DNA of 64,000 nt, taken from positions 10,788,001 to 10,852,000 of the forward strand of contig JBHGNT010000003.1 of NCBI GenBank assembly GCA_043228905.1. Direction: 5' to 3'. How positions within the stretch are numbered: the stretch's first letter is position 1; each line of letters opens with the position of its first letter. Below the pieces are notes generated by a model. The model had not been told where the DNA came from and searched no databases. It saw nothing but the letters and a program-made list of their open reading frames with translations. The position numbers and the translations under genes were made by a program. This DNA comes from Azolla caroliniana (lineage: Eukaryota; Plantae; Polypodiophyta). This document shows, piece after piece, positions 28,591 through 54,749 of the stretch.

Positions 28591-31499
28591 CATGTGAGAT
28601 CATGATATCGATTAATGTTTGCCCATGATATGTTTACATCACGACTTGATGTTATGACTATTTGCCTGCCCTTATCCTATTTCTTTGCCAGAAAGAATCA
28701 TTCAATGGCTGAGAATAACGACCCGATGTCATCTGCTCAAGCGGAAGGAACTTGAGTCGTATTTTTTACAAATACAACATTTCCTTAGTTCAACCGCGCA
28801 TCAGATGTCCGAACTTCGGCAATCTCAAAGTGCTCTCGAGACACGTTGTCGCGGTATTCCACGAGTACGTGTAGGATCCGAGGTGGGACCACGGGGTCTT
28901 GGACTAGGGAGTAGAGGAGAAGGAATAAGACACAAAATGGAAGCTTAGCTCAAGAGGACTATACATGTGCACATGTTGCACACCACCAACTTGCCCATTC
29001 CACCTCGGTTTCACACTTTAGCCGGAAATCTTCACGACATCCACCCCCACCAAACCCACATCCACCTGTATATGCCGAGAAAGGAAAAGGGTGAGAGATT
29101 TCGGCGACGATGATCAATCGGGTCCTCTGCCTTACCGGCACCCGACCGTCTCACTGGCTCCTTACCGGCCCCGATCCGTCGACTTCCGGACCACGCCTAT
29201 CCTCCTTTCGGGAACTCACCTCCACAGCCATCCTTGTTGACCTTGCTCGACTTCGTCATCCACTTCGAGCATGCCTGTCCCTTCCACACAACCTCCATAA
29301 CCTCCCAATCCGTCGTACGTCGCCGAACCGTCGGCTCCATTTGATTCGCCATATCCAACATTCTCGCCTTCCTCCTTGATGGGTCCTACCGGACCACGTT
29401 GCTGATCCAATCACCCCTCCTTTGTCCGCCGTGTATGTCCTCCGATCGGGTCCCCGGTCACTCCAATCGCACGCCGGATTACGCGTACCGCATACCACGT
29501 GTGTCCCTCCTTTGGTTCGACCGTCTCCTCCTCCCGAATACCTCGTGTTGACTCCTTCCATCCCGCACTCGCCTTCCGTAGGCTCTTTCCGTTATTGCGT
29601 TATTACGCACGTGCGTGTAGAAGGGGCGGGACCACAGGGGTCTCGGACGAGGGAGAAGAGGGATACTGATAAACCCGACTTCGGACATGACCCGGAGGCA
29701 ACCGAACACGAGAGGGAAAGAGAGAGAGAGAACATGCGCACGACACTAACTCTTATACACATAGGAAACAAAGAAAGAAACGCACCCGACACCAACAGAG
29801 ACACAAATATGCACAACCCTTTATATAAATGATTACAAGAGTGAGTTATAACTCCAGCTCCGAGCCGGACTGAGGTAGGCTAGGTCACAACAACAGACTG
29901 TCGCCAAGCCGCCGTCGGGGAGCTCCCGGGCTCATTGCGTCGAGTGGGGTCTTGCACATGAGGCCAAGTAGAAGTAAACCCCCACATAACATCCAGGCTC
30001 TTCACTTGGCTAAAACCCTTAACAGCCACGAAGAGGGCAGAAGAAGAAGAAGAAGATGACAAGATGAAACCCCAAGAATAAGAATGAGATGAGAACCAAG
30101 AAAACTACCAAACCCTAGACTTACGTGGTATACCCTTCTAACTCAAAATGGGCAACCCCTCTACAAGGGACCATCCCTTCCTTTTATAGAACAAGGAGAG
30201 GAATGCGTTACAATGTGGGATAAATCCCACTTACATGGGATTCTCTGTTCCGACTTGAATCCTACTATTCACACGTTTTAGAAGGGTAAGTGCACATGAT
30301 GCACTCCGCTGATTCTTCTGATATTCCCCGGTTTCTCACCATAGCCCGGAATCTTCACGACATCCGCCCCCACCAAACCGCACGTCCACCGGTACGTGTC
30401 ATAATCGGTGAAGGGAGATGGATTCCGGCTGGTGAGAAATCGGTCTTTCGTGTCCAATCCCGAGTTTGTGCGTCGATCGCTGCCGGGTTTGAACCGTCGG
30501 CTCCGGTTCTTCCTTGTGCATGTCTCCTCGTTGGCTCGTTCGACCTGTCGACAGGTCATCCATGGTGGTCCCATAGTATGCATGCTTTGTTGCTGCCCTT
30601 GACTTGGCCGAATGCACACTCCGCTATCCGCCGTAAGCCCGGGGTCCTCCACTCGAGGAGTGCACGTAACGGCCCGCTTGGCCTCAGTCCATCGCCGCGT
30701 TGTCTTGGTTTCCGTCTTTGCCGCCGCTACCGTCTGTCACTCTCGGTCTCACACGGGCTCTCGGGCCGGATGCCAGAGTCTCTAGAGTCGGTGCGTGTGA
30801 AGTCCCGGCACCACCGCTTCCCTTTTGCCTATGGGTGTCCTCTGCGTCTGAGGAATACTCGTAGTAGCCTGCTTGGCCCTCTTTTGTCTTGCGCCACTGG
30901 CCGCCGGGTTGAAGCCTTTCGCTCGCCGTCATCCCGTCGCCCCCACTAGCTTGTCATCTCGGGCTTGGCTTGCCACGCCAGTCGTTACCACTCCGACTAA
31001 GCCGTCGAGATCTCCGAAGCGGGTGTGGAGGATCCTTCTCAGGCCTGTATATCTTTCCCGGTTTCTGACCCGTGCAGTCCGTCACGCACCCCTTTTTGCG
31101 TTCCCGGCACATCCGTGTGCCATCTCTTAGTTGTGCTCTGATTCGGCCCGCTATGGCCACTTGCACGACTCTTGTTCCGCCCTGGGTATGCCTTGCCAGC
31201 CCGACACATCGCCTGTGCTTGCCCTTATCGGCTCTCGCGAAAACCGTAACCGGTCGGTAAGGGTTTCGCAATTAGACAACTCCTGATCTGCTACTTCGTG
31301 TTGCCTGGTCCAGTTCCCTACCGCCACCGACCTTCTCTCTCGGTCGTACGTTGCCACGTTGGTGGAACAACCGAAATTTCCGGATCGGCGTGAGGATCCC
31401 ATAGGACCGGACTTCGTTTCTCTACTTGCTGAAATTTGGGGTGTCTTTTGTTTGAGTCCATCTCGACTCTCCTCGTGTCTTCCATGTAGCCAGGTCCCA

Positions 31500-32390
31500 T
31501 TTCTTGCCGCCACCGTCAGTATCTTGGTCTTATGTCGGATCCGATGCCGACTGCCCAACTCTCTAGATCCGGTGCGAGGTGACCCATAGGACCGGCCTAT
31601 CCCTGCATTCCGCCCTCGTCCCCTCGCCACCACCGTCAGTCTCTTGGTCTTACGTCGAATCTGATGCCGACCGCCGAAGTCTCTAGATCCGGTGTGAAGG
31701 ATCCTCCTCGGGTTCTTCGTATCTCGGACCCTTATCCCATGTCGTCTCTCTCCGCATGTAGAGAGTGTGGCTCGCTCCACACCCTCTCCCATGTTACAGA
31801 CGTACCGTGTTCCCGGCCTCTTCGTAGGCCCGCTCTCTTCCTCCCTTCTGGATCGGTTATTCGGAAGTCCGCTCCGCCCGGTTCTCGCCCGGGTTCGTCC
31901 GTCACTCCGCATTGCCGGGTCCTGTTCTCCTGCCGCCACCGTCAGTATCTTGGTCTTACGTCGGATCCGATGCCGACTGCCGAAGTCTCTAGCCCGGTTT
32001 GAGGTGACCCATAGGACCGGGTCTTCGTTTTCCGCTTCAGTCCCTTGTCGTCCCGAGTTCGTCCCTCATTCTCTGGATTGCCGGGTCCCGTTCTCCTGCC
32101 GCCACCGTCAGTATCTTGGTCTTACGTCGGATCCGATGCTCACCGCCGAAGTTTCTAGATCCGGTGTGAGGTGACCCATAGGACCGGCCTATCCCTGCCT
32201 TCCGCCCTTGTCCCCTCGCTGCCACCGTCAGTCTCTTGGTCTTACGTCGGATCCGATGCCGACCGCCGAAGTCTCTAGATCCGGTGTGAAGGATCCTCCT
32301 CGGGCTCTTCGTATCTCGGACCCTTATCCCGGGTTGTCTCTCTCCGCAAGTTGAGAGGGTGGCTCGCTCCACACCCTCTCCCGTATCGGC
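31500..32390. repeat. Complex internal repeats in F (five copies of a ~65-bp core plus longer duplicated blocks)
   Basis: ccaccgtcagt(a/c)tcttggtctta(c/t)gtcg(g/a)atc(c/t)gatgc near 31510, 31630, 31936, 32102, 32222. Confidence 0.9.
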
Positions 32391-32687
32391 ACCCTCATGC
32401 GGATTCTGGCCCTGGTCGGAAAATCCATGACCGGATCGCGCTCCAACCGAATCGGAGTGTCGCGTTGTTCAGTCCCTGGTCAAGTCGATTCTTGGTCTCT
32501 TCGTCGACCTTCTCGCGAGCCATTTCCCATCCATTTTCATTGGCATCGTGCCAAGACTCCTCGACACCATCATCCATCTCCTCGGACTCACATGGGCATA
32601 AGGGCCCGAATGCCGAGTTCTCCGGAATCGGTCCTGAGGGCTCTTGTCCGTTCCTTCCCCATATCGTCTCGTTGGTGATTCTTGGTC

Positions 32688-33860
32688 TCACGCCGCCGCC
32701 TCTCTCCTCTTGGGACTCACGTGGGCACTCGGGCCCGACTGCCATCGTCTCGGGAGCAAGTGTGGGAAGACACAAAGAATCGCCCGTCCGTTTTTGCCCT
32801 TGTCCGTAGCGACCGACTCTTCGTGGCTGGTGGTCATCTCCTTACCGATCGCGCAAGCCCCGGCTGGGCTTGCTTCTACTATGTCTGGAGCCTCGGGTTG
32901 ACGTGCCCGAAACCGCCGGTCCCAACGCTTCGATCCCGCGCTCGGTATCCCGGTCTTGTCCTCAGCCGCTCTATCTCCGCAATTCCAGAGGGCGTTATGT
33001 TCCGCACCCTCTCCCATGGTACCGTCGTACCGATCTTCTATCTCCTTGTGGGGCAAGTTCGCCTCCTCGGCCTCGGCTTGCGGCCTCGATCTTTCCTCTT
33101 CTTCGAGCGTTGCCTCTAGAGTTGTGTACGCCTCCGCAATCCTGGCCCCGAAACCGAGTCTCGCCAACTCTCTTTGCCGTTCGACCTCTTCCCGCTCTGA
33201 TGGCATGCCGTCGCGCGCCTTCCTCTTAGCCTTCTCAGCCTTCTCAGCCTGCTCGTCATCTAGCAGTTGGCATACCCTTCTGACCTCCAACCAGTCCTCG
33301 GTAAGGCCATTCGCTCTGTCCTCATCTTCGAGCTCAATCCCGATGGCCTCCCGTTCCACTCGGTCGATTGACTTAACGAACAACAAGACTTTGTCCGCCC
33401 CCATCAAACCTTGTTCCCGCTCCGGGAGCCGAGCAAGTTGTCGCTCGAACTCTCGGAACGCCTTTGTTGCGCCCTGGTGGGTCTTCGCCGATGCCACCCA
33501 CTGGTCGAAGTCGCGTTGTCCCCGGCTCTTTCGCCGTCCCCCATATGCCTGCAGGAGCATCTCTACGAAGGCCTCCCACAAACTATGAGTTTCTCGAAGC
33601 TCCTTCACTTCCGCATGTATACGGACGACGACGACCCGGCAAAAGAACTCCAGCCTCAACGCCTCGTCTACGTCTCGCTCCTCCATTTCCGCGTTGTAGG
33701 CTTCCAAGTAGAATGGGACTTTGTCCCCGTTGAAACGGACAACTCTTTTGACCACTTGCTCAACCGCTTGCTACGCCATCTCTCGTCTTGCTTGTTGCTC
33801 GTCCAAACTCCCTCACCGCTTCGACAAAAAGTTGTGCGAAGTCGTCTTCCTCCAACTCCA
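32688..33860 (-). pseudogene. Gag (capsid-like) coding region of F; frameshift or stop near 33760
   Basis: RFNGDKVPFYLEAYNAEM..WEAFVEMLLQAY..DFDQWVASAKTH..AFREFERQLARL..DKVLLFVKSID lies just downstream of the PBS. Homologous to E and J ORFs. Confidence 0.75.
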
Positions 33861-36325
33861 TTCTCCCTTTTTGCCCTTTCACGTCGGGTTCACCAAATAA
33901 TGTCGTGTTATTACGCGCGTGCGTGTAGAAGGGGCAGTACCACAGGGGTCTCGGACGAGGGAGAAGAGGGATACTGATAAACCCGACTCCAGACACGACC
34001 TGGAGGCAACCGAACATGAGAGGGAGAGAGAGAGCGAGAGAACATGCGCGCGACACTACCTCTTATACACACAGGAAACAAAGAAAGCAATGCACCCGAC
34101 ACCAATAGAGGCACAAATATGCACAACCCTTTATATATATGATTACAAAAGTGAGTTACAACTCTGGCTCCGAGGTAGGCTAGGTCACAACAACAGTCTG
34201 CCACCAAGCCGCCGTCAGGGAGCTCTCGGGCTCGTCGTGCCGAGCGGGGTCTTGCATAGGAGGCCGAGTAGAAGTAAACCCCCATATAACATCCAAGCTC
34301 TTCACCGGGCTAAAACCCTCAACAGCCACGAAAGGGGCAGAAGAAGAAGAAGAAGAAGACAAGATGAAACCCCAAGAATAAGAATGAGATGAGAACCAAG
34401 AAAACTACCAAACCCTAGACCTACGTGGTATACCCTTCTAACTCAAAATGGGCAACCCCTCTACAAGGGACCATCCCTTCCTTTTACAGAACAAGGAGAG
34501 GAATGCGTTACAATGTGGGATAAATCCCACTTACATGGGATTCTCTGTCCCGACTTGAATCCTACTATTCACACGTTTTAGAAGGGTAAGTGCACATGGT
34601 GCACTCCGCCGATTCTTCCGATATTCCCCGGTTTCTCACCATGGCCCGGAATCTTCACGAGACTGTGTGTCGTTGTAGTCCCCCGAATTTGCGCTCGTTC
34701 TTTGGTCCTTAAGTGACCCCATTACGTGCTCCTCGCTTCCCCCTTGCTTGTCGTGCTCTCTTGCCGTAGAGTGTACCATCATACCGACCTCCGTGTCGGT
34801 GTCCTTTGCGGCTCTTGTTACCGCTTCGCCTCGACTTGCGCTGTCTTGGCTTAGCATGTCCTCCGGGACGCCGCGCTTTCTCTTCTGGGCGTGTATCCTT
34901 CTCCGCGCACCATCCTTCTCTCCTGCCGTTCATTTGCCGATCACGACACCTTACCGCTCCGTCTCTCGCCGCGTGCTTGCCTCTCAAAGGCTCGACCGGT
35001 CTGCCGTTGCTAGTCACTCGTCGCCACTCTTCCGGGTGCATGCTTGCTTCTTGGCCCTTCGCCGGCCATAGTGCATGCTCTGTTTTACGCCCTTCACTTG
35101 CTGTAGACCCGACCTACAGTTCGGCCTCTTCTCCCTTTGTTATCGTAGCCTGTTCCGACTTGGGCTTGCCGTCTTGGCCCCACTCGTCCATTATTTCATA
35201 CGGATACCCGCTCTGGTAACCTCGTCCACTTCGGTAACCAACTCCTCGTCGCCACCCGCCGTCTCTCCGGTCTTACTTTGGTCCACAATCGCCGAAGTCT
35301 CTAGAATAGGTGTGGAGGGTCCTGCTTGTTTCCGGTCTTTCACGGAACCGTAGTCGTCATGCCCGCTTGGCCTCCTTTTCGCGCTCACTAGCTCCCACCA
35401 TGTGTTGCGACTCATCCTCCCCGATCTCCAATCATGCCAGCTTGGTCCATGCCCGGTTTGGTCCCGATCGATCATGTTCTGGTTTGGTCGGCTTCCTTCC
35501 ATAATCGTAACCAGCCGGTAAGGGTTCGGCCGAACCCTTCCGGTCTTGCCGGCTCTTCTTCGGTTTGGTCCGGGTTGACCGGCCCCCGCTTCATTCATTT
35601 CCCGGTTCGCCTTCCAGTTGGGTCAATTCCCGACTCTCTCCTTGTTGCCACTCTCGGCCTCCCCTTCGTTCCTTTCGTATATGCCCGTTCTGGGCCTCGC
35701 ATCCTCCTCTTCGTTTCGGTCACCCGTCTTGCCACTGCCACCGTCTGTCACTCTAGGTCTCATATCGGCTCTCAGGCCGGATGTCGGAGTCTCTAGAACT
35801 GGTGCGGGTAAGATCCCGGCACCGCCGCTCGTTATGTCCTTAGCCACCTCCATTTGTTACCGGCCGGCAAGGAGTCCAAAATACGGAGTGAAGGAATTAA
35901 TTAAGTATGGTTGTAAATAAGCATAGTGTGGACGGACGGACTGGAAACGGTATGCCGTTCTAGATCCGGACGGATCCCGAATGGGTGCGATAGGCACCGT
36001 TTTGTACTACGGGCCGGAAACCTATTTAAAGGCCCGGACCCCATTGAAATCGGAGCGGATAATTAATAGAGCATATGGTGTTTATACTTCTGTGTTGATT
36101 TCCGTTCTGTAATTACTGTTATATCTTACGCGTGTAATTAACCAAGCATTCTAATCGTGTAACTTACGTAAGTCGGTGTAATCGTTGAATCTTAATCCTA
36201 TGCCGTAATCACCCTTTGGTGAAGTGTCTCCGTGACACCTTGTGTTAGGCCTTGTCCGGCCAGCGAATAACACAGTTTTGGCGACCACGATTCCTGCTTT
36301 CTCGCAGCGAACGACGGCTTAATGG

Positions 36326-39300
36326 ATGACGAGACCAACGCACGACCTGGTTACAGACCGAGCTCGACGCCTCGCCGAACGGCAAAGACGGCGTGAGACT
36401 TTCCAGCAAGCAGCGCATGAAATTCGCTCGGATCGTTCGTTCTCCAACGAGATCCGGAGAGTCGCGGAGGAATCTCTTCGGTTACAGCAAACTCGCGACC
36501 AGGACGACGGAAGCAGTCTAAGCAGTCTCCGGGAAACCGAACGCCTTCTCGAGGCGCTGGCAAGCGGAGAAAACGAGGCAGAAGCCTTTTCAGCCTACGA
36601 ATCGGATTCCGACGGGGGATACAGCGTGCACACGAACTACCAGAGCAGCAACGATACCCCCGGCGGCCCGGAGGACGACGGGTCGGATACCGTGCCGACT
36701 CCAGAACCGGAACCGCTCAACCAGGGCTATCCGGAACCGCAAACGGAAGCCGTCAACCCACCAACACCGGAAGTGGAAGAAGCAAAGCCACCGACACCAA
36801 CGAAAGAGCCGGCAAAGGTACCGGAAGAAGAGCCGGTGAAGGAACCGGAAAAAGAACCGGAAAAGGAACCGGAAAAAGCACCGGCAAAAGAACCGGAAGT
36901 GGAACCGGAGAGAAAACCGGAAAGATATCAACAAACGCCACTAAACCGCGGCCTAATACTGGACGACGACATGCCGTTCCAATACTCAAAGTATCGCGAT
37001 GACCCGGACGCGGAAGCGCATGTTCATGCCTTCGAGCAGACATGGGAAGCAAATCACACTTCCCAGCGAATGACACCGGAGGAAGAAGAACGCTCGAAGA
37101 TAGCGGAATTCGGGGTCACGTTGGAAGGACCAGCGACACGATGGCGACGGACGCAGGACCCGGCGACCATCACAACCTTTGCAGAATTAAAAGCAAAATT
37201 CTTGCATTTTTTCCACAAGGAGGTCGACCAGACGACAATGGTGGGCCTGTTTTATACAATCCGGCAGGAGGCAGGGGAAAGCATTCCCCAATTCGTCATC
37301 CGTTTCCAACGAATGCATAGCCAGCTTGCCCGTGCACACCCGGAGGAGGAATTACGGACGATATTTTTAAACGCACTCCGGGAACCGTTACGCACGGTGT
37401 GTACGGTAATCGACTTTCGAGGAAGCACCATTGACTAGGTCATTGACCGGGTCAGAGAAATGGAAAAGTCAAGCTCATGGCTTACGCTGGGAACACTACA
37501 ACGGGCGTTACCCACCGAGGAAGATCTCCGGTTCCGGCAAGCAATTCAATGCACAATCTGCTTGAATGCCGGACACTCGGCAGTGGAGTGCACCATGCGA
37601 ACCCAGTGCGTGATTTGTCAATCCAAGAGTCATACAACGGACCGGTGCGAGTATAACCTGTTAAACTGACAAGCACCACCCGTCCGACGGATCGAGCCAA
37701 GAAGCAGCCGAGACGAAGATGACGATCGTTGGCAAAGAATGAACCGGTACCGACCGGCACAGGATGCCCGGTACGGAGATAGACAAGAGAATGATGGCCG
37801 GTACGGGAATCGGCATGATAACTACGACCGGTATGAGCGATCAGACTGTTATCGGGAGTCCAACAGACGACACGAGCAATACGACAGAGACCATTCCCTT
37901 GGTTACCGGAAGCACCAGGAGGACTACGACCGATTTTACGATCCACCACGACCGGACTAACGCAATAAAAATAAGAATAATAAGAAACGTAATTTCAAGA
38001 AAGGTGGTCACCCTAGGGACCCGGAACATGGAACCCCAAGGAGCCAACCGGCACAGAACGCACCACTCACTACGGGACCGACTCCGGCTACCAGCAATGC
38101 TGAATCCAGCAATACCGTAAAGAGTACTGCTACTACTGCAGGCAGGAAGGCCACTACAGTAACCAGTGCCCGGTAAAGAGCTACGAGAAACGACCAACAG
38201 TTAATATGGTGGTTCCGGAAGTGACGGATGTACAGCAAGTAACCACACGGTCGAAAGGCATGGCCAAAGAGTGGGAAACACAAGAGGCCATACGAAAACA
38301 GGCGACGGAATGGGTGAAGGAAGCCAATGGAAGGAACGTCGCGGACGTGGAACGGCAAAAGGCGAATACCATAGGGAGTGCCGGCGGTAGCCACGCAGAA
38401 AACGAGACATGGCAAGCACTGCAAGAATGTCAGATCACGTTGCCATTAGGAAGACTCTTGCAGCTCGTGCCGCGATTTACGGAAGGACTAAAAACGGTCA
38501 TGACAGACGGTATAGCCCCACCGGCACCAGTCTTCTTCTCGAATCCGGAGGAGGGACCGACGGTGGTGGACACTAGTAGTCCGGTGATTACAACTATTGT
38601 CAAAGGGCACGAACTTCCCGGCACAGTAATCGATGGAGGATCCGGAGTGAACGTAATAAGCCTCCGCACGTGCGATGCCTTGGGTATACATGAATGGGAG
38701 CCATGTCCGTTCTGGCTACGGATGGCGGATACAAGCTCTGTACGACCGACGGGCTTAATACGGAAATTGGAAGTCACCATAGGAGGTCACACATTTCACA
38801 TCTCGGCTGTAGTGCTGCAGCTACAGACGCAAGGCGCGTACCCACTGTTGCTGGGCAGACCATGGTTGAAAACAGCACACATCAAGCAAAATTGGCGGAA
38901 AAATATGATTACCTTCTGGCGCGGAAAAGCCAAGGTCCGGGTACCGACACAACCACGGACGAGCAACGGTAAGGAATGCACACCGCTATATGCGGAATGC
39001 GTGAACATGCTTGAAGGGTTGGCAGACGACGAAGAAGCCCAGTACTTGGAGGAACACCCGAAGATCGTACCACTCTTCGAGATTGACGTAGCTGAAGCCG
39101 TAGCGCCATACATGCCGCAGCGGGACGAAACCGAAGCCGAACCAGACAAAGATGCGATTCGGGAATTACGGCAAGCACAGGAAGCGTTGGAACGGGAAAT
39201 GGCCGTTTCCCAACGGGTAAAAACATCCCAGCTCGACGAAGTGAACCTAGGAAGCAAGGATGAATCAAAGCCGGTACACATCGCCAAAGAAATGAAGCCG

Positions 39301-41688
39301 GAAGATAAAGCGGCGATGATCAAACTTCTCACGGAGTTTCGCGACGTATTCGCCTGGTCATATGAAGACATGCGAGGGCTGGACCCTCAATTATATCAGC
39401 ATCAGATCCACTTAGGCAAGGACGCGAAACCAGTGGCGCAAAGACGTTACCGAATGAACCCCAACTACGCCGCCAAAGTGAAGGAGGAAATCGACAAACT
39501 CCTAAGAGTGGGCTTCATCCGGCCGGTAAAGAAAGCGACGTGGCTGAGCCCCATCGTCGTCGTCCCAAAGAAGAACGGTAAAATCCGCGTGTGTGTAGAT
39601 TACAGGAAACTAAATGCAGCCACAATTACGGATGCATTCCCTCTTCCGTCACTTGGCTGACTTGGCTACACCATTACACACCGCGGTACATCGGACACCG
39701 TTCCAATGGACGGATACGGAGGATAAGGCATACAATGCCCTGAAGGTACTTTTGTCGCAAGCACCCGTCGTGCAGCCTCCGGATTGGAGCAAGGAATTTC
39801 ATGTGTTCGTTGACGCTTCCGACATCGCTATCGGCAGCGCCTTAATGCAACTTACGGAGACTAAATGGTACCGGCCGGTATATTACGCCAGCCGGAAGCT
39901 GTCCCAAGCGGAGAAGAACTATTCGACGACAGAACGGGAGGCCCTGGGCATGATCTACAGTGTCACAAAGTTTCGTCATTACCTATTGGGAAGGAAGTTC
40001 TCCTTTCATGTGGATCACTCGGCGCTCCTGTACTTAGTGTCCAAGGCGTCCCTGACCGGTAAGTTGGCCTGTTGGACCTTGCTGTTGCAGGAGTTCGAAT
40101 TCGAGATCTTTCACCGGCCCGGTATCCAGCATGCCGTAGCAGACTACCTGAGCCGGTTAGAGTCCGGAGAATCAGACGACGGAGTAGCGGATGAATTCCC
40201 GGACGCAGAGTTATTCCGTATCACCCCGGAAACGGCAGCGGACGACACGGTGGTATCAGAAGATAGGTGGCTGACAAACATGCACCAGTTCCTAAGCACG
40301 GGCCTGCCACCGGAGGAAATGAACCGGGACGAGAGGAAACGACTGGCGGTGCAGAGCCGCAATTTCTGTCTGTTACGGGACACTCTCTACCACAAAGGAG
40401 CAGATGGAATATGGAGACGGGCAGTCCGTAGTGACGAGAAACAAGTAATCTTACGGGAAGCACACTGTGGGGTTGCCGGAGGACACTATGCCGGGGAAGC
40501 GACGGCAAGGAAAGTATGGCAGAGCGGCTTGTGGTGGCCCACGACGTTAAAAGACGCCGTCAAGTATGCTAAGGAATGTGACCTATGCCAGCGAATTGGC
40601 CAGCCTACGGAGCAAGCACGGATGCCACACCAACCGGTACTTCCACTAGAGCCATTCCAGAAGTGGGGGTTGGATTTTGTCGGACCGTTCAAGCCACCGG
40701 CAATGAGAACGGGTAATCGTTATGTCATCGTGGCAACGGATTATTGCTCTAAATGGGTGGAAGCTAAGGCCCTGAGAGACAACACCGCGTCTCCACAGCA
40801 AAATTCCTGTACGAAAACGTTTGGTGCCGATATGGATGTCCGATTGAATTAATCAGCGACCAAGGAGGGCACTTCCTCGGCCAGGTAGTGGAAAGCTTAA
40901 CAACGTTCTATGCCGTGGTCCATAAACGAAGCACACCGTACTACCCACAGGCGAACGGGTTAGCAGAGTCCACCAACAAAACGCTGCAGAACATTCTCCG
41001 CAAAATCGTCAACGAAAACCGGACGGACTGGGATACAAAGCTCCATAGCGCGCTATGGGCGTACCGAACGGCATACAAAACAAGTATCCGGACAACGCCG
41101 TTCCGGTTAGCGTTCGGCTTAGAGGCGGTCATGCCGGTGGAATTTCAGGTACCAAGCTTACGGATCCAACTACGGGAACGGCTGAATGAAAAGAAGTCGG
41201 AGGAAATGCGGCTAGCAGCACTATGCGAACTGGAGGAGCAACGGCTGGCCAGCATCCTACACATGGAACTGGAGCAACGACGACGGAAAGCGTTCGTTGA
41301 CCGTCACCGGAAAGGTAATGAAAAGATGTTCGAAATCGGAAAGCCGGTGCTAGTATTCCAAACAAGGATGGGCAAGATGCCGGGTAAACTCCGGTTTAGA
41401 TGGACAGGCCCGTATTGGCTGACACGGGAATACAACGGGTCCTATCAGATTGGGACACTTGCCGGTGAAGTACTAGGCAAGTGGGTGAACGGATTTAGAC
41501 TAAAGCCCTATAAAGGACCAATGCCAAATAACCCGTTTATGCAGCCCACCGGCACTATACCGGGAACCTGTCCGGGAACGGTACGGATGGAAGAAAAAGA
41601 CGACGGGGAACCCGTAGCAGAGGCGAAGGAAGACACGGCAACCCGTAAGGAAAACGGTAAGGGTCCGAAGGGACCTACGGATGTGTAA
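36326..41688 (+). pseudogene. gag-pol of G with premature stops, frameshifts and RT-core deletion
   Basis: Gag (LEGPATRW..FAELKAKFLHFF..IRQEAGESI), three CCHC knuckles, VIDGGSGVN (PR), [25 protein letters not shown] (RT N-term), [12 protein letters not shown] (RH), HHCC, GLDFVGP and QANGLAESTNK (INT). Confidence 0.95.
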
Positions 41689-41702
41689 GGTCACACACCG
41701 TC

Positions 41703-41705
<3 letters not shown>

Positions 41706-41738
<33 letters not shown>
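41706..41738 (+). repeat. A33 homopolymer between pol and the extra ORF of G
   Basis: Directly visible. Confidence 0.95.
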
Positions 41739-41740
<2 letters not shown>

Positions 41741-42076: not shown

Positions 42077-44746
42077 ATGGAACCACAAACGCTGTCGGAA
42101 GCGGCCAGGAAATGGTTCAGGCAACACGGACTGGACGGGTTCTTGACCATCATGGAGGCACCACCGCACAAAGAAGCCGACCAGGTCATCAAGGAGCTCG
42201 ACAAAGAAGTCATCACCGAGGAAGCGATCCGTGCGCTAACAGGCCTTCCAGAGGGAGGTATTTTTCAGATTGATAATCCAACCTCGGAGCAACTCACCCG
42301 ATATTTCGGTGAGTACTCTGTAGCCGGCAAAGGCTATCGAACGCAGGGCGGCGAAGATCCGCTGTTCAGGGAGATAGCTCGAGTGCTCCATGAGTACGGC
42401 CACGTGTACCCCCGACCCCCTGTCATGCCAAAAAATCGGGCAGGGATGATCATAGCCACCTATGAAGGGATCCAGGTGGACTGGCCGGTGTTGATTGCAG
42501 ACGGTTTGTGCGCGGCAATCGACATGGTACGAGGAAAGGACGGCAAGGAGGGCCGGAAGCTGTGGCATGCCGTAGCTCAGTGGATAACATTGCTCGTGCC
42601 GCCGGTCGAGACCGTTCAGCCAAAGAAGCGGCCAAGATTATCGGAAGGAAGCACCTCGAAACCCGCGTCCAAACGATAGCAGCTGCTGGCGTCGAAGGCG
42701 ACGAAAGGGAAGAAACGGCTCCTAGTACCGGAGGAGGTGTCACCGGTGGGACCCGTTAAGATAACCATACGGCGACCGGGACAGAAGGAACCAGAACCCT
42801 TGACGGCACGGAAACATGCCGTTACCCAGGAAGAGGAAACGGAGGAGCCAGAAGAGCACCTCCAACGACGGTCAAGAAGTAGGACCGCCGGGACAGCGGG
42901 GGAGCGTTCGGACCCGCAGAAGGAAGAAACGCCCCCAACTCAACCTGAGCAAACCGCAAGGGAGGAACCGGAACCGGTGCGTGTGGAACCGGCCTTGTCG
43001 ACTTCTATACCAGAAGTCATTCCAACGGCTCCGGAGACGGCGAGAACCGGAACTCAACAGCCGGCGAGCCCAGCCAGCACACACGGCGGCCAAGAAGTAG
43101 AACTAGAACGGCAGATACAGGCACTCAGGCCAGACAATTCCACAGTGAACGAGCCGAACCGACCAGTACAGCAGCAAGGCACCAGTAGCATGTGGCTACG
43201 GTGTGTAGGTGAGCAGATCGCCGGAGCGGTCGAGTACATAGAGGCGGAGGAGAGAGCGCACAACGAACGGTTGCTCGTCACAACCGTAGATCTAGAGACG
43301 GCCCGGTCCAGAATCCAGAGCCTTGAACAAGACTTGGACAGGGTCACAAGGGAAATGGCTCAATTGGCTTTGACAACACAAGTCCAAGCACCGGTGACTC
43401 CGGGCAACGTACAGAATAAAGCGTCAGATCAACCTGTACATAGCAATCAGACCCCGGCAACGGAAACCGTTCCGGAGAGAAATGCGGCACAAGCCCAAGA
43501 GCTTGCGGACTTAAAGGATGAGCTAGCTGCCCAAGAAGCGCCGAGGAGCCGTGAAAGAGAGTTGAAGACGGCATCGGAGGCAGAACTCAAAAAGACTGCT
43601 GAGAATCTACGCCGGGCTGAGGAGAGCTTACGGAAAGGCCACCAAGCGTACGACCGGCTCAAGGAGGGAAAGGAGAAAATGCTGCAAGAGAAGGACAGAC
43701 TCCGGAGGAACGCCAAAATAGAAGTAGAGCGCCTGAAAGAGGAACTCCGGCAGGTAAAGGACCGAGAGGACCGGAACCATCGCCAGATCAACGGCAAGCT
43801 CAAACAAAAAACGGAGGAATTTGAGCACTTGCACCGGGAGTATAAATGGTTGCAAACGGAGCACAAGGAACGGACGGATGAGCTCCGGCAAGCAGTTGAT
43901 CGGACCGCAACGACATACGCTAATGAACAAGCGGAAAACAGAAGACGGTTGGAAGAGGCGGAGAAGGTTCGGACAGAGCTCCTCAGGCAACAGCAAGCGG
44001 AAAAAGAAAGAGCGGCGGAGGTACTGCAGAGGCTGCAGACGACATATCAAGGGCAGCTGACGCGCTACAGAGAGCAGGCGGAGGATACGGCGAATCTCAT
44101 CAAGCAGTTGAAGGAGGAACGACAAGTTGTGGAAAGTAGAGCGCAAATGGGAGCAAGTCGCATCCAGGATATAATGCGGGCCTGGTTGAACCAGACCAAG
44201 AGCTTGATTGACAATGGGTCCGTCAAATGGTGGACCAAGTGGGCCACGAACGCGGCGGAACTCCAATTGCTCCGGGCCGACGTAGAGAACCGGCGGAAGG
44301 AGGGGGATGATTGCTATATGCTGACTTCCGAAGACTTCACCGGCATAAGAGATGAGCTGGCCGAAGACTTTCAAGCCTTGGCAGAGGACCAACTAGGGCA
44401 AGTCCGGCAACTTGTAGCTCAGCTGGACGACGACAGGCTGGAGGCGCAGATCCAGTTTGAAAGCTACGAGAGGTCCCGGATCCGGGAAGAGAAAGCACGA
44501 GAACCGGTTACGGTCAACCTCAGTGATGAGGAACTGTTACTGGAAGGAGACCGGACCGGTAGCAGTCAAACGGAGATGCCGGAGTCAGAGAAACAAACGG
44601 AGCAGCCGCCTATAGAGCAGCCGGAGCAGCCGCAGTCCCAACCGCAACCACAGCAGCAGCAGCAAGCAGAGCCGCAACAACCACAACCGGAAGAACAATT
44701 GGAAAATCTGGAACAAAGTATTTTGGACAATTTGGGGGAACAATGA
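42077..44746 (+). pseudogene. Extra ORF of G: N-terminal plant-transposon (PF20167/PMD-like) domain plus long coiled coil; one in-frame TAG at 42677
   Basis: ORFs 41768-42679 and 42737-44746 are in the same frame. Motifs ITEEAIRALTGLP and RAGMIIATYEGIQVDWPVLIADGL; E/K/Q/R-rich region ~43240-44500. Domain call is from motif memory only. Confidence 0.7.
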
Positions 44747-45221
44747 AGGGGCCGAGAAGGGTTCGACGTACAAGGTACTGTCCCACGGGCGTGCCATGTG
44801 TTACCGGCCGGCAAGGAGTCCAAAATACGGAGTGAAGGAATTAATTAAGTATGGTTGTAAATAAGCATAGTGTGGACGGACGGACTGGAAACGGTATGCC
44901 GTTCCAGATCCGGACGGATCCCGAATGGGTGCGATAGGCACCGTTTTGTACTACGGGCCGGAAACCTATTTAAAGGCCCGGACCCCATTGAAATCGGAGC
45001 GGATAATTAATAGAGCATATGGTGTTTATACTTCTGTGTTGATTTCCGTTCTGTAATTACTGTTATATCTTACGCGTGTAATTAACCAAGCATTCTAATC
45101 GTGTAACTTACGTAAGTCGGTGTAATCGTTGAATCTTAATCCTATGCCGTAATCACCCTTTGGTGAAGTGTCTCCGTGACACCTTGTGTTAGGCCTTGTC
45201 CGGCCAGCGAATAACACCATT

Positions 45222-46230
45222 CGGACGTTATTGTTCATGGCTACCCCATCTCCAATCGCGGAAGCCTCGATTACGCTTGCCGCCTCCTCTTTCTCGATGT
45301 CCTTGCCATCGTCTTGGTTGCCCGCCTTGCCGCCGCCACCGTTCGTCACTCTAGGTCTCACACCGGCTCTTAGGCCGGATGCCGGAGTCTCTAGAATCTG
45401 TGTGGGTAAGGTCCTGGCACCACCACTCGTCTCCTCCCCACTTGATGTTTCGGGCCACCGTGTCCCGAATCCTCCGCCCACTCTCGAAGTGGCGCTCCCC
45501 ACTTCATAGTCACCGGCCTCATCCATGGCCGCCCCTTTTCCCCAAGACGAGAGGGTCTCTTGCTCCGCACCCTCTCCCATGTCGTCGTCGTTGCTCACTC
45601 CTCGGGCCTCCGCATTGGCCCCATCGTCCACGCATAGGGAGGCTTCTTCCTCTGCATCCTCTGATCGTCTCCGACCCGACTCCATAATAAGCCCTTCTTC
45701 GGCTTTGAACTTCACCTTCATGATCTTGCACGCCTCTAGGTCGTACTTCTTCGGTTGATCGCGTGTCGAGCTCTCTTCCAGCAGTAGTGCGTAGCCGCTC
45801 ACCGCCCTCTCTTCTCCGCCGCTCGTGGGCCACGTTGTTGCCGACCGCTCCCCATCAGGTTGCAGGCATACCCACTCCGGTTTCGCATATCCGTATGCCT
45901 CCAATAGAGCTCCCTTAAAGGACTCCCACGACTTATCAGGTCCTTGAATCTCCATGACCTCTTTGTGCACCGATACGGCTGCCACTCGACGAAAATATTC
46001 TAGCCACATCGCTTCGTCCACGCCCCTCTTCATCATCTCGGCATTGTACGTTTCAAAGAACCTCGGGACATCATCCCCGTTGAATTGGCCGACTCGATCG
46101 ACCACCCTCTCCACGGCTTGTTGAGCCGCATCTTGCCTCGCCTTCCTCCGTCAGACATCCACCCTCTCGACGGCTTGTTGAGCCGCAAAGTCGAAGTCTT
46201 CGTCTTCAAACTCCGTCCTCCCTTGCTGCC
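45222..46230 (-). pseudogene. Gag-like coding region of E, interrupted by G
   Basis: GQFNGDDVPRFFETYNAEMMKRGVDEAMWLEYFRRVAAVSVHKEV..SWESFKGALLEAYG aligns by eye with the F gag. Confidence 0.72.
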
Positions 46231-46789
46231 TCTTCACGTCGGGTTCACCAAAGATGTCGCGGTATTCCACGAGTATGTGTAGGATCCGAGGTGGAACCAC
46301 AGGGGTCTTGGACTAGGGAGTAGAGGAGAAGGAATAGGACACAAAATGGAAGCTTAGCTCAAGAGGAGAAGAGGAAGAATAACACATTAACATATAATAG
46401 AATAGATGGAGGCAAGATACACCCACAAGACAAGAAACATCAACATGCTATATTAAGAGTTCACAAAAGATTACAACCAAGGCCGTATAAGCTGCACCCA
46501 AAACGACTACAAGAAAACCCTAACCCGATAAGTAAGCAAAGAAGCATAGAAACCCTAAAAGAAACCCTAGAAGAAACCCTAAAACCGAATAGAACCCCTC
46601 GACCTAAGTGGTATACCTCTCTCACTCAAAATAGGCAACCCCTTCACAAGTGACCCCTCCCTTCCTTTTATACTATTTTCCTACTATACATGTGCACATG
46701 TTGCACACCACCAACTTGCCCATTCTAACTCGGTTTCACACTATAGTCGAAAATCTTCACGACAACGTGTCATTAGTTTACAACGTGGG

Positions 46790-48720
46790 CTGACATATGC
46801 AATCTTTGTAATATTTAGCGTGGAATATAGTTGAAAATGAGACTCCCATCGGCCCAGCCACGTGTAGATTGCTTCTTCGGTTCTTTCCTTTTTTTCTCCT
46901 GTAAATGGCTTTACGACAAATGATGGTTCACCCTGACACTCATCGTTTCTATTAGTCTCACATTGTAAACTAATGACACGTGTCTCGAGAGCACTTTGAT
47001 ATTGTTGAAGTTCGAACATCTGATGTGCGGTTGAACTAAAGAAATGTTGTATTTGTAAAAAATACGACTGAAGTTCCTTCCGCTTGAGTGGATGATATCG
47101 GGTCGTTATTCTGAGCCATTGAACGATTATTTCTAGCAAAGAAATAGGATAAGGATAGGAAAATAGTCATAACATCAAGTCATGATGTAAGCATATCATG
47201 GGCAAACATTAATCGATATCATGATCTCACGTCAATACCCCTCTAGACGTATGAGAGTAGGTTGAAGATTAGGTTACTATGGTAACACAAAGGTATTTTA
47301 AAAACCATGGGGGTGACAAATGAATGTCTTTCCGTGATTTCTATATCGATTTTTTTCATGGCGGCTCGCCAAGGCTCAACCATGTATGTTCGCGTCATGA
47401 ATAGTTTATACACGAAAAAAATGTTAACAATAAACTATGTTTCTGTGCCCACGTATGTGGTTTCGGCTCTTTATGTCCAATTACGAGGACCCCGAACTAC
47501 ACTTAGACCTAAAGTTTAAACATGTATTATAGTCATACATATAATATTTGAACTCGAGACCTGGAGAACAAATGCATTAAACACTTGGCCTAACCAAATA
47601 GGTTGCTCGTGTTGAATGTTTAATATTTTATGCATATAACAGATATTCGAGGCATTTTCCCATATATGTTTTTTTTAAAAGAAACATATATGTCAAGAGT
47701 CCTTATTTCCCTCTCGTTTACCACAAACTATGTTGGTACATTACCTAACCTCAAGTCTCATAATTACGATGGCATACGTCAAAGTGTAACCTAATGGTCA
47801 AGCCAAATGAGCCGTATTTTCGTAGTAGGCCCACGTGGCCCATCACATGGTTACCTCATTCTGAATGCCTTTCAAAAGAATGATCTCATGGTGGCATCGT
47901 ATCCATGTAATGAGGGAGGGATGTTGGATATGTGTGTCATAGGATCGACCTCACATGAAGTGGGTCAACCCCTACATTCGTTACGTAACGAAACCGAAGT
48001 GACCAATAGGGATGTCAACCAAAACAAATTGTTGAAAAAAAGGATGGTGACTATGCCATTCTCAAAAACATGTGAGGACGGCCACCAAGGACAACATTCG
48101 ATATATAAACGTAATAACTAATATACACATACGTATATTTATCACACATATACGATCAAATACGTATCCACGTGACCACATATGTGTATATTAAGAATAA
48201 TCGTAACATCAAATAGCCAACATATGATGAAATCGAGACACGTAATCGAGGCATATAACCACTATGCACACAGAACATCCAATAATAATTGTTAATCATA
48301 ATACGCAATTAAGGTATTGACCTCTTACGCATACGATACCAAACACATATCATTTACAAAAAATCGAGGTATTGACCTCATATGCATACGTAACATATGT
48401 ATTTGAACATAATACGCAATTGAGGTATTAACCTCGTACGCATACGACACGAATCACATACACATATGTAAACGTTTTACACAACCAATTAATTACCACT
48501 ACAACATACACATAAATATATTTCAAATGAGGCATTGACCTCATACACATATTGACTGTATACGTGATTAGATGGGAGAAGGAAAAATAGAGAAAAAAAA
48601 CAAAAAAGAGTTACCGAAGTTTCTTTGTTGATCGTTATGTGGATCAAGGTCGACCGCATGTCGATCGATCACAATCCATCAAGAACACAAAAACAAACAA
48701 AGGAAACATTAGAAACATAT
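46790..48720 (-). other. Long 5' leader and gag start of D, with short repeats (gaggtattgacctc) at ~48310-48545
   Basis: Lies downstream of the PBS at 48721; ends in GEPSFVVKPFTGEKKERTEEAIYTWLGRWESHFQLY..KIAYVS. Confidence 0.85.
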
Positions 48721-49184: not shown

Positions 49185-50016
49185 CCTGAAGCGCCCGCGA
49201 CAAAACAGTCACAATTCGCTGGGAAACGCAAGACATCCAATGAATTCATGGATGGCGATTGTAAGTAACAAAATCCTTTTTGCATATTTTGCAAAAGGAG
49301 GGTCATATAAAATAGCAATTTCGGAAGCTCCAATGAATAGAGCACGCCAACAAAACCAAAGTTGTAGACTATAAAGGTCAGATTCCTGATGTCCTTGAGG
49401 TCTATACACATCATTTAAGTAATTGTAAATTTCCTTCCCTCACTATGTATTGGGGCCCAATAATTTACTATGTCCAAATAGGTATATCAATGGATCTCCC
49501 GTACAATTCTTATTTGATTCGGGAAGCTCACACAACTCTAAATGATTGTTTGGTTCAGATCTGGGGAATCCAACCCACCGTAAGTGATCACACCTATAAG
49601 GTGCACTTGGCTTATGGAAGAGTACAATACATCACGAGGCGATTCATTCATTAGGAATTTCTATTTATCCTTGTATAGAGGAAGTAGACTTCCATTTTAT
49701 TCAATGTGTTAAAAAAACAATCTCTTTCAATTGTTTTCCCTCCATGAATATCTGAGTTGTCTTGTTCTTCTTTATTTTATTGTGTACTTGATCCAAATAT
49801 TCATGTTTATAATATTGATAGTGTCTCGGGTCATTTATCACATTTTGAACAACAACAATTCGATGAAATCTTAAATGATTTTCTTGATGTTTTTCAAAGT
49901 GAACTACCACATGGGTTACCTCCTAAACGTAATGTAGACCATCATATAGATATTGTACCTAGAGTTGCACCAATAAGTATAACTCTATATCACTTAAGTT
50001 GATCTAAAGAGAACGA
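49185..50016 (+). mobile_element. D0 continued (gag end, PR region, RT start); resumes at 54702-54748 after J
   Basis: EILNDFLDVFQSELPHGLPPKRNVDHHIDIVP. Across J the frame reads SKENE/VSKQAKDYLQMGYIR. Confidence 0.82.
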
Positions 50017-53000
50017 TGTTGTGTGGTTTTTCCCAAACGATATGAAAACTAGTAAAATAAGTATTTAAGATTAGCTTAATGGATGGATATGGGAAGATAG
50101 ATATCTTCAAGAGCTTCATAACACATTTTTCTACGCATGAAACAGATAAAGAAATATCAAGTTATGTGTGTGTGAAGTTTGAGAAGAAGAGGAAAACAAA
50201 ATTGTATTAAAATATCCCACATAGATAGGAAACTTTAGGATCCATCTATATAACTAGATTGAGAACCCTTAGTTTTTATCTATGTGTTGAGAGCATAAAA
50301 GGAATGGTAGGACTTGGACCAATTTGTCTATATAGAAAAATGTGGCTAAGGAATCTGATAGAGCCGACAACTGGAAATCAGATGTAGCCGGCAACCGGAT
50401 AGAACCGACAATGAAGCCGAGAACCAAAAATTGGATGGAGATGGTAACCGGAAACCGGATGGAGCTGGCAACTGGAAATCAGAAATCGGACGGAGCCGGT
50501 GATGAAGTTGGGAATCGGAACCGGAAATCGACGAACTATCGGACGGAGCCAGTGATGAAGTTGGGAACCGGAACCGACAACCGACAACCTATCGGACGGA
50601 GCCGGTAACCGATAACCGGACAGAGCTGACAATCGGCAACCGGATGGCGACTAAACGAAAACCAGACATGGACCGGACGGATCGGATGGGCGATGATCGA
50701 GATGGACGGATGATAGGATCATGCGGCGAATTAAAGTAAAGTAAAGTAAAGTAAAGTAAAGGTGATGTGGACGCATGCAACTGAAGTTGGAGGGCATGCA
50801 TAAAGTAAAGATCATGTGAAAGGCATGCAAAGAAAAGAGGGAGGCCATGCAACTAAAAGTGCGCATGCAAAGTAACATTGGAAACTATGATCAATGGAGA
50901 ACTCCATATATATTTCATTTTTTTTCCCCACTTTTTCCGCTCTCCATTTTTTTCTTTTCCTTCTCAGCTCCGTTATCTTATCGAAGCAATATCTCTCAAA
51001 AACCCTAATTTTCCTTACGGAAGCTATCTCTTAAAAAGCTTAATTTTCCTTACGGAAGTTATCTCTCACATAAAACCTAATTTTCCTTATAGAAGCTATA
51101 TATCAAAAACCATAATTTTCCTTACGGAACCCATGTCTCTCATATAACCATAATATTCCTTACAGAAACCATATCTCTTGAATAGCCTGATTTCTTTTCT
51201 TATGAAAGCCATATCTCATAAATTTGAAACCTAATTTTCTTATCGAAACCACAAACCCTAAAATTTTCTTATATATTAATCTCTTTAAACCTAAACTTTT
51301 GTAATCCCGATCTTGGGATAGATTGTAAATTTTCTTTCCATTTACTAATAAACTCTATTAAATTTTCTCGTTTATGTTAATTCTTAAAGTATAAACACAC
51401 GAATGTGATATCCTCTGGTCAGTGGCCCAGGGTCCTGCCTCAAGTTCACGCATCCTCGTCGTATTTTAGCGATATCTTTGGTGAACCTGACGTGAAACGA
51501 GGCGGCAGGAGGATATCTCATGGAGGCATATAGATACAAAGTGCCGAAGAGATGCAGTCAATATGAGTTCGACCAATGGATATCATCATTAAAGACCCAC
51601 CAAAGTGCCATGCATGCTTTCATTGAGTTCGAGTGTCACTTTGCACAACTCTCAGAGCAGGATCAAAGATTGGTGGGGTGGATAAAGTCCTAATGTTCGT
51701 GATGTCAATCGATCGGAAGGAAAGGAAGGCCAGGATGCAAATACAAACTACCACCTAAAGAAGAGAGCTTGAAGAGGGAAGGTTTGATGGTATTTGACGT
51801 AGAGGCCTTCATCAACAAGGCATATGAGAATTTAAAGGTGCAAGTCGAGGCCAAAGAGAATCTTATAATGGAACCAAAACCGATTAAAATGGTTATCAAG
51901 GAAGAAAAGACCTCCCAACAAAGGTGGAGTAATGATACAGCCAATACGAAGGCTCAAGTTCGGTACAATAGCACCACAGGAGAAGATGTGGAAAATGACA
52001 CCTTCTGGTCTTGCAAAGAAACAATGATGAAGAATGAAACAAATGAATGGAGGGTGGCGAATGCCACTTCAAGCGAAGACAAATGTTTCGGAACACGCAT
52101 CGTGTCTGAAACATCAAGTGATGAAGGTGCAAGCATGCACAAAGCTTCCATGATCAATGGAGATAAAAAGTGTGAGGTCGACATGATTGAGGAGATAGCC
52201 ATGAAAAATGACATCGAGTCAGAGGTGGCTATGAACGAGTCAATGGTGGATGGCCGTGTCGAACTTGTTCTAGAGACTTGGGCAGATGCATCAAAATGCA
52301 AACATGAGACCCAAGCGACGGAAGGTGGCAGCGAGGAAGTGAAGGTCGAAGCTAACACATGCGAAGAAGAAGGAGATGTCAAGCCTAAGAGGGTAGACGA
52401 TGATCATGAAGAGACTTTCCCCACAAAAGTTCTTGAGACTTCGGCATTAACTGATGTAAGACCCAAGAGACGGAAGGTGGCGGTGAGGAAGCAAAATTAA
52501 AGCCAATGCGAACAACCATAAGGTGGAAGTGGCTAAGGGTAGCACTGCAAAGGCAATGGCAATCTACAAAATCATATAAATCCATCTGCACTCGTTTGAG
52601 AGACTTGGTAATTAACCAATGTAAGACCTAAGAGAAGGACGGTGGAGGCAAGGAAGCAAGGATTGAAGATAGTGCGTGCAACAAGGAAATAAAACGAAGC
52701 ACAGGAACAAAAGTTGATGCTTGCAACAAAGAGCCGAGGAGTAGCACAATAAGGGAAGACAAGGGCCAAGTGGGCCAAATGGATCCAAAAGATGTAATCA
52801 CAAAATCTAACAAGGATGACACTAGCATGGAAGTCATGGTCAACTCCAAAGTATACCACGAAAGTGGAAAAAGTGAGAAGCATGAAATGTGTTCACTTAA
52901 GAACCTCGAGGTGAGCATGCAATTGAAGAATGGACCACTAAGAGTACTCAACAATATTATTTCAATAAGGCCTTTGAAATGCATGCATGGAACAAGAAAG

Positions 53001-54697
53001 GATGATAAAAGAAAGTTAGATGACCAAGGAGATGGTCAAGATGAAGGTGGCACATGCACAAAGCATGAAGCATGGATACCAGCCACAGAAAAGGGAGCCA
53101 TGGATACCAGCCACAGAAATGCAAAGAGTGAACGAAGAATATGGTGGATCAAATGGCAATGGTAGTTCAGGTATAAAGAAGAAACATCGATGAAGTAGAG
53201 TAATCAAAAGCGGAGCCTCACCAAAATTGGCACATACCGGTGGATGTGCAGGTTTGGTGGGGGTGAATATCGTGTGGTTTTTCACACACAATATTAAACC
53301 GGTAAAATAAGTATTTAAGATTAGCTTAATGGATTGATATGGGAAGATAGATATCTTCAAGAGCTTCATAACACATTTTTCTACGCATGAAACGGATAAA
53401 GAAGTATCAAGTTATGTGTGTGTGAAGTTTGAGAAGAAGAGGAAAACAAAATTGTAAGATATCCCACACAGATAGGAAACTTTAGGATCCATCTATATAA
53501 CTAGATTGAGAACCATTAGTTTTTATCTATGTGTTGAGAGCATAAAAGGAATGGTTGGACTTGGTCCAATTTGTCTACATGGACAAATGTGGCTAAGGAA
53601 TTGGATAGAGCCGCCACTGGAAACTGGATGTAGCCGGCAACCGGATAGAACCGGCAACAAAGCCGGGAATCGAAAACTGGATGGAGACGGTAACTGGAAA
53701 CCGGATGGAGCTGGCAACCAGAAATCAGACGCAGTCGGTGATGAAGTTGGGAATTGGCAACCGGCGACCTATCGGACGGAGCTGATAACCGACAACCGAA
53801 CGGAGCCGACAATCAGCAACCGGATAGAACCAACAACCGGATGGCGATGGAACAGAAACTGGAGGCGGACCAGACGGATCGAATGGGCGACTGTCGAGAT
53901 GGACAGATGATAGGATCATGTGGTGAATTAAAGTAAAGTAAAGTAAAGTAAAGTAAAGGTGATGTGGACGCATGCAATTGAAGTTGGAGGGCATGCATAA
54001 AGTAAAGATCATGTGAAAGGCATGCAAAGAAAAGAGGGAGGCCATGCAACTAAAAGTGGGCATGCAAAGTAACATTGGAGACTATGATCAACGGAGAACT
54101 CCATATATATTTCATTTTTTTCCCCACTTTTTCCGCTCTCCATTTTTTTCTTTTCTTTCTCAGATCCGTTATCTTATCGGAGCCATATTTCTCAAAAACC
54201 CTAATTTTCCTTACGAAAGCTATCTCTCATAAACCCTAATTTCCTTACGGAAGCCATAAACCCTAATTTTCTTTACGGAAGCCATATATCTCAAAAACCC
54301 TAATTTTCCTTACGGAACATATCTATCAAAAACCCTAATTTTCCTTACAAAACCCATATCTCTCGTATAACCATAATCCTCCTTACGGAAACCATATCTC
54401 TTGAATAGCCCTATTTTTTTCTTATGAAAGCCATATCACATAATTTTGAAACCTAATTTTCTTATTGAAACCAAAAACCCTAAAATTTTCTTATCTATTA
54501 ATCTCTTTAAACCTAAACTTCTGTAATCCCAATCTTGGGATAGATTGTAAATTTTCTTTCCCTTTACTAATAAACTTTATTAAATTTTCTCGTTTTTGTT
54601 AATTCTTAAAGTATAAACGCACGAATATGATATCCTTTGGTCGGAGGCCCCGGAGTCTTGCCTCAAGTTCACGTATCCTCGTCGTATTTTCGCGAGA
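50017..54697 (+). mobile_element. Pol-less gag-remnant LTR element J: LTRs 50017-51474 and 53268-54697
   Basis: ~1.45-kb paired LTRs. PBS tggtgaacctgacgtga 51479-51495. PPT ggtttggtgggggtgaa before 53268. TSD ACGA/ATGA. EFDQWISSLKTHQSAMHAFIEFECHFAQL..DKVLMFVMSID at ~51565-51715 matches the F gag. Confidence 0.9.
50990..51300 (+). repeat. ~35-bp degenerate tandem repeats with AAACCCTA motif in J LTRs (also 54190-54510)
   Basis: Unit aaaccctaattttccttacggaagc(c/t)atatctctca. Confidence 0.88.
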
Positions 54698-54749
54698 ATG
54701 AGGTATCTAAGCAAGCCAAGGACTATTTACAAATGGGTTATATAAGACA

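Follow-up and report, generated by a model that had tools for sequence, protein, structure and literature searches.

Three LTR insertions in Azolla caroliniana as broken copies of a pol-less capsid lineage that likely borrows its enzymes from Phygy-type gypsies

A 64,000-nt stretch of Azolla caroliniana DNA (contig JBHGNT010000003.1, positions 10,788,001 to 10,852,000; the window) contains three long terminal repeat (LTR) insertions, named E, F, and J. A reading of the letters alone (the original prediction) had described them as tRNA-Trp-primed, gag-only elements with very different LTRs and a common primer-binding site (PBS) after a 4-5 nt spacer. The window contains exactly three copies of the 17-nt PBS (51479, plus strand; 46250 and 33895, minus strand), against a chance expectation of ~1e-5 from composition, and the spacers between LTR end and PBS are 4, 5, and 4 nt in E, F, and J. 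Element E spans 46764 to 28847 on the minus strand and has two interruptions: an unrelated gypsy (35855-45216) and F (34662-29593), which is nested inside it. Element J lies at 50017-54697 on the plus strand. The features are listed below (TSD, target-site duplication; PPT, polypurine tract; ORF, open reading frame; N-lobe and C-lobe, N- and C-terminal lobes of the capsid).

28843-28846, E TSD, copy 1, ACGT; copy 2 at 46765-46768
28847-29039, minus strand, E 3' LTR, 193 bp, with a 317-bp internal deletion
29040-29588, minus strand, 3' piece of the E internal region with pre-PPT motif and PPT
29589-29592, F TSD, ACGG (minus strand); other copy ACAG, 34663-34666
29593-30362, minus strand, F 3' LTR
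30363-30398, minus strand, F pre-PPT motif and PPT
31479-32382, minus strand, degenerate tandem repeats of F downstream of the ORF
32395-33861, minus strand, F gag-like gene, predicted two-lobed capsid and acidic tail, frameshifts near 33790 and 32790
33878-33895, minus strand, F PBS, 18 nt, tRNA-Trp type
33901-34662, minus strand, F 5' LTR
34667-35854, minus strand, middle piece of the E internal region, acidic tail remnant
45222-46254, minus strand, 5' piece of the E internal region with PBS (46250-46233), N-lobe, and tail start; most of the C-lobe lost in frame
46255-46764, minus strand, E 5' LTR, 510 bp
50013-50016, J TSD, ACGA; other copy ATGA, 54698-54701
50017-51474, plus strand, J 5' LTR, ends resembling the autonomous family L051/L069
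51479-51496, plus strand, J PBS, one-base variant
51520-53165, plus strand, J ORF remnant, beginning at the capsid linker, with partial C-lobe and a tail with a Trp-rich end
53232-53267, plus strand, J pre-PPT motif and PPT
53268-54697, plus strand, J 3' LTR

The LTRs differ widely in length, as predicted: 510 bp in E, 762/770 bp in F (93.0% identity), and ~1458/1430 bp in J (91.7% identity). The E pair is 95.9% identical, a value that covers 193 nt and 8 differences. The nesting of F in E makes F the younger insertion despite its greater LTR divergence. Internal regions of ~2.8 (E), 3.5 (F), and 1.8 kb (J) give elements of ~3.5 kb (E, minus nested elements), 5.07 kb (F), and 4.68 kb (J). The predicted pre-PPT motif is present in all three, and both predicted gag peptide motifs were found, with three residues rather than two between VP and E in the first.

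The predicted absence of protease (PR), reverse transcriptase (RT), RNase H (RH), and integrase (INT) was borne out. None of 11 pol and gag queries from the window matched the E, F, or J internal regions below an E-value of 0.05, and the same queries detected a control gypsy stretch at 1e-10 to 1e-22. A PBS scan of metagenomes returned at least 120 loci, 80 with long flanks; the L-numbered loci are short-read contigs of relatives. Intact autonomous elements, termed helpers, were found at L018(978), L031, and L051. Their gag-PR ORF (721-745 codons) overlaps an RT-RH-INT ORF (1152-1180 codons), and their LTR termini, PBS, and pre-PPT motif are those of E, F, and J. Helper pol matches the window at just 24-32% identity, consistent with the prediction that no partner lies there, and Pfam found neither an aRH nor a chromodomain in the two helper pols scanned. 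Among the best 120 homologues of helper pol, the named ones come from Riccia sorocarpa (up to 64%). The four F-covering runs that were compared all cover the L018 helper pol as well (at least 80%), with contigs in all bins. No RNA run appeared among the public runs listed. L018:1-12351 carries a helper, an LTR, and an E-type parasite in a chain with a common middle LTR, which may be a real tandem or an assembly path. Neither a PBS match nor a relative turned up in viral contigs.

Each TSD is 4 bp long (E, ACGT/ACGT; F, ACAG/ACGG; J, ACGA/ATGA), and all three conform to NCGN when one CpG-type change is allowed in F and in J. An uninterrupted homologue of the E host element elsewhere in the window (18760-19300) contains the target site once. 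NCGN also precedes 11 of 14 non-PPT LTR starts in the fetched loci, the three misses being an inverted junction, a variant PPT, and a site inside an LTR. The PBS is complementary at 16 of 18 nt to the end of tRNA-Trp, taking the human tRNA end rather than a plant tRNA gene for the comparison (bioRxiv 10.1101/400127). It is also exactly complementary to miR894, the name given to an abundant plant small RNA that ends in CCA, and the J variant matches a listed miR894 variant (PMC5846777, whose accessible passages leave the source tRNA unnamed); the E, F, and J PBS is thus a likely target of tRNA-end fragments. Six further loci (L009, L027, L032, L066, L075, L089) have the same PBS with a different LTR-like end (TGTAAACA) and no gag match, and are probably another Trp-primed group.

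Phygy elements have a 4-bp NCGN TSD in 100% and a Trp PBS in 81% of cases (REXdb; PMC6317226), so the NCGN targets and Trp priming of E, F, and J read, at the sequence level, as the Phygy signature. Further likenesses are the helper without an extra domain and the homology of the capsid with a Physcomitrium protein. The definition of Phygy is based on autonomous 7.7-10 kb elements from Physcomitrella (PMC6317226), whereas E, F, and J lack pol and the nucleocapsid knuckle.

The F reading frame starts at 33861. The structure check proposed for it was run, and the predicted fold of its core (pLDDT 92) resembles a two-lobed retrotransposon capsid. In VIA the top 26 rows are all Gag-capsid-type chains, with dArc1 best (Z 10.5). 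Against Arc the N-lobe scores Z 8.9 (root-mean-square deviation 1.8) and the C-lobe Z 8.4 (2.7), and both lobes match Arc, Copia, Ty1-derived, and retroviral capsids. A sequence search of the PDB did not recognize the capsid. Homologues at 40-71% identity number 19, plus 5 longer ones, and a profile search recovered 801 proteins. The distant matches, some of them from Physcomitrium and Riccia, are gag-PR proteins that carry a zinc knuckle, DUF4100, and protease. Intact relatives of the F protein comprise 7 distinct 474-aa proteins 83-96% identical to the first; 5 further distinct open proteins of the lineage have 1419 aa, and others are 618-690 aa long. These open proteins may derive from few samples, and some are near-identical (98.6-99.9%), a hint of young copies. 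The zinc knuckle is absent from all 21 pol-less clade proteins checked and its pattern is present in 6 of 8 helper-type proteins. The capsid is followed by an acidic, repeat-expanded tail of up to ~1200 aa, often with a terminal Trp/Arg-rich motif. The locus L002:841-2800 has the same PBS, termini, and PPT around an open frame of 623 codons, in which no match to the capsid was detected; its protein has a helical-looking N-terminus followed by acidic repeats.

Phylogenetic analysis places the three gag types together. A tree built from 58 full capsids unites the F-, E-, and J-type proteins in one 19-row clade (support 99/98), and a tree of 43 C-lobes has a 31-row pol-less clade that includes window F and J (100/99). 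Six clade loci have 850 nt or more of downstream sequence, and every one of them lacks PR and pol, which are present in 11 of 12 helper-type loci; the LTR filter behind this count left out long-spacer loci such as L051, L053, and L063. The proposed dN/dS analysis of gag was carried out on 75 pairs with at least 40 codons, of 105 possible, and of the 72 finite capsid values in the pol-less clade all were below 1 (median 0.35), which is purifying selection. The clade, the pol-less loci, and the dN/dS values together indicate that gag evolved on under constraint after pol was lost. With the missing zinc knuckle and the long open tails, they also argue against an origin of E, F, and J by single deletions in pol-bearing elements after insertion.

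The LTRs have a different history from the gag genes. The J LTR ends are 0.76-0.83 identical to those of helpers L051/L069 and 0.56-0.60 to those of E/F (shuffles, ~0.52), whereas the J gag does not match that helper family. J tracks L069 for 38 nt after the PBS, then the pol-less clade, and is L051-like again just before the PPT. Likewise, L058 is 88% like helper L051 over 156 nt past the PBS and then 83-84% like the pol-less L080, and so appears to be a helper/parasite mosaic. The J mismatch and the L058 mosaic suggest that LTR diversity likely arose by capture, and the two crossover points would most simply be template switches in shared particles. Single contigs could be assembly chimeras; J in the window and L080 nonetheless agree.

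Several relatives encode half a capsid. Three different in-frame junction types remove the N-lobe and leave a C-lobe: type 1 in J, L080, L077, P0067, and P0073; type 2 in L058; and type 3 in L018(7496), L045, and P0124. The original prediction that the elements keep their own Gag therefore holds in part, because J-type and some E-type families retain the C-lobe only. The J-type ORF is broken in the window and open for 634 codons in L080; N-lobe-less frames run without a stop for 634, 663, and at least 1064 codons, where shuffles reached at most 178, 167, and 289. In the pairs compared (L080/L058, L045/L018(7496), L077/L080, and L077/L058) the C-lobe dN/dS is 0.19-0.37 (one-sided Fisher p 1e-3 to 4e-6). 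The holders of the type-1 junction are not one clade (3 changes on the tree), and such junctions may recur by microhomology; selection after N-lobe deletion is argued for only by the type-3 set, a clade of 3 rows (97/86) whose pair gives 0.37 (p 1e-3). In-frame C-lobe loss like that in E was absent from 20 N-lobe-matching proteins inspected, so it may be private to E.

Two alternatives concern the origin of the elements and the identity of the helper. Each element could be an independent deletion derivative of the autonomous family that matches its LTRs, with gag a passive remnant. The J LTR ends do match a helper family, and a derivative of this kind exists: L063 (minus strand from the PBS) has a helper-type capsid, a PPT 1.9 kb after the PBS, and no protease match, and appears from these features to be an independent short derivative. 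The single gag clade opposes this origin for E, F, and J, and approximately unbiased (AU) tests reject grouping J-type or F-type gag with the LTR-matching helpers (p-AU 0.0008 and 0.0003). The tail motifs common to the parasites have no blastp match to helper gag-PR or pol, and the distinct 474-aa and 1419-aa open proteins, with a dN/dS of 0.35, do not look like passive remnants. Independent deletion is largely refuted and is very improbable. An equally slight probability attaches to a TatI or Selgy helper in place of Phygy, Selgy having been named with Phygy as a partner in the original prediction. TatI shares the 4-bp TSD and Trp PBS (75% of 4 elements), but carries aRH in 100% (PMC6317226), whereas a single RNase H region, and no further RNase H family, was detected in the two scanned helper pols. 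Selgy likewise has a TSD of 4 bp but primes with tRNA-Ala (90%; PMC6317226), unlike the Trp-type PBS of E, F, and J, and was rejected as the partner. Within the accessible part of PMC6317226 NCGN is reported for Phygy alone, and gag has homologues in Riccia as well as in Physcomitrium patens (A9U5C3).

The half-capsid forms are open to two interpretations, both of which we consider doubtful. The elements could be non-autonomous for Gag too, with the frame kept open as a safeguard for the RNA, against nonsense-mediated decay for instance, and with half-capsids frequent through in-phase microhomology and the protein mattering little. The L080/L058 tail fits this account, being near neutral in part (dN/dS 0.51-0.80) in a frame open for 634-663 codons; some frames continue past the PPT and on into the LTR, hardly any capsid is left in certain relatives (L076, L041, L038), and E lost the opposite lobe, likewise in frame. 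It is opposed by the constraint on the C-lobe, which is lost in a shifted-frame reading (dN/dS 0.96 and 3.4), and by F-type ORFs, which end 2 kb before the PPT. The other, no less tentative, interpretation is that several families are mobile half-capsid elements that arose at least three times and were retargeted by capture of helper LTRs; the C-lobe and tail would dock in the helper particle, carry their own RNA, and poison helper assembly. Modelling of the helper capsid together with the L080 C-lobe, run with no alignments, returned a score of 0.00, which gives no verdict on docking. The domesticated Ty1' factor is reportedly also a capsid C-lobe without an N-lobe (cf. PDB 9rxy). The Ty1 p22/p18 protein is a capsid fragment that blocks assembly and is likewise a C-terminal lobe made without the N-lobe (PMC8458377). 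It comes from an internal transcript of an autonomous element, whereas here a mobile pol-less element has the C-lobe, extended by a long tail, as its main ORF, and any restriction of the helper would be by analogy with Ty1.

We conclude, with a probability of about 0.85, that E, F, and J are damaged copies from a single pol-less LTR lineage encoding a capsid with an acidic tail and likely borrowing PR, RT, and INT from autonomous Phygy-type gypsies. Parasite RNA would enter helper particles, where the zinc-knuckle-less capsid protein would co-assemble with helper Gag. tRNA-Trp would prime reverse transcription at the common PBS, and helper integrase would cut CG-centred sites. Template switching between co-packaged RNAs would give the parasite new LTRs and leave E, F, and J with unlike LTRs and like gags. 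Several points weigh against this conclusion. All three window copies are broken. Pfam found no domain in the window proteins, and Foldseek alone gave no F match under an E-value of 0.001 (best 0.023, the same capsid family ranked first). Selection is weaker than in the helpers (median 0.16, 24 of 45 pairs finite), the dN/dS pairs are non-independent, and the AU groups were chosen after tree inspection. The Phygy assignment rests on TSD, PBS, and helper domain content. The helper-parasite pairing comes from short-read contigs and runs; the fetched loci may hold assembly chimeras, and at the L018 helper-parasite join the LTRs are mismatched and no bridging contig is listed.

The predicted TR-GAG-like non-autonomous radiation is supported by the capsid fold, the pol-less relatives, and the single gag clade. 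Like TR-GAG (Chaparro et al. 2015, PMC4350172), E, F, and J have two LTRs, PBS, PPT, TSD, and a single gag ORF without PR, RT, RH, or INT, which is open in relatives and broken in the window. TR-GAGs are mostly <4 kb with a 5-bp TSD; the elements here are 3.5-5.1 kb, within that paper's 1-6 kb search filter, with a 4-bp NCGN TSD. TR-GAG1 combines a Leu PBS with a UBN2 domain and a zinc finger, whereas this lineage has a Trp PBS, tails to ~1200 aa, and C-lobe-only forms. New relative to TR-GAG are the absence of a zinc knuckle, the selected capsid, likely LTR capture, and the repeated C-lobe-only forms; the NCGN target, knuckle loss, half-capsids, and likely capture also go beyond the original prediction. 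In sugar beet, template switching likewise makes new LTR/internal combinations in chimeric non-autonomous LTR elements, and 28 families retain GAG/PROT only; the accessible passages report no selection on remnants and no half-capsid forms (PMC13570524). Among the papers that searches outside subscription journals returned, no title or abstract opening described a non-autonomous Phygy or C-lobe-only plant element.

Two observations concern the surroundings of E. The gypsy nested in it (35855-45216, plus strand) is young, with LTRs 99.5% identical and a 5-bp TSD. It has no evident purine tract, a CCA-ended tRNA-like stretch ends 2 nt before its 3' LTR, and extra ORFs of 305 and 688 codons lie 3' of pol. 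The E host element is rearranged (28594-28846, 46765-47537): a 253-bp flank is duplicated and inverted (92%), and a 210-bp piece adjoining the E 5' LTR has short inverted repeats at its ends, with the target site lying within them.

Plant retrotransposons that have gag alone are usually regarded as decay products whose helper cannot be traced. In the present case the parasite can be matched to a helper through the target site, the primer, and the termini, and through a recombinant. Since the capsid is invisible to Pfam, annotation pipelines likely class such elements as non-coding repeats. The parasite capsid has been under selection long after pol loss, which makes the gain from keeping Gag a testable question. 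The recurrent C-lobe-only forms offer a natural test of Ty1-like capsid-fragment interference in plants; if they do poison helper assembly, they would be factors that spread by themselves and control the copy number of a plant retrotransposon.

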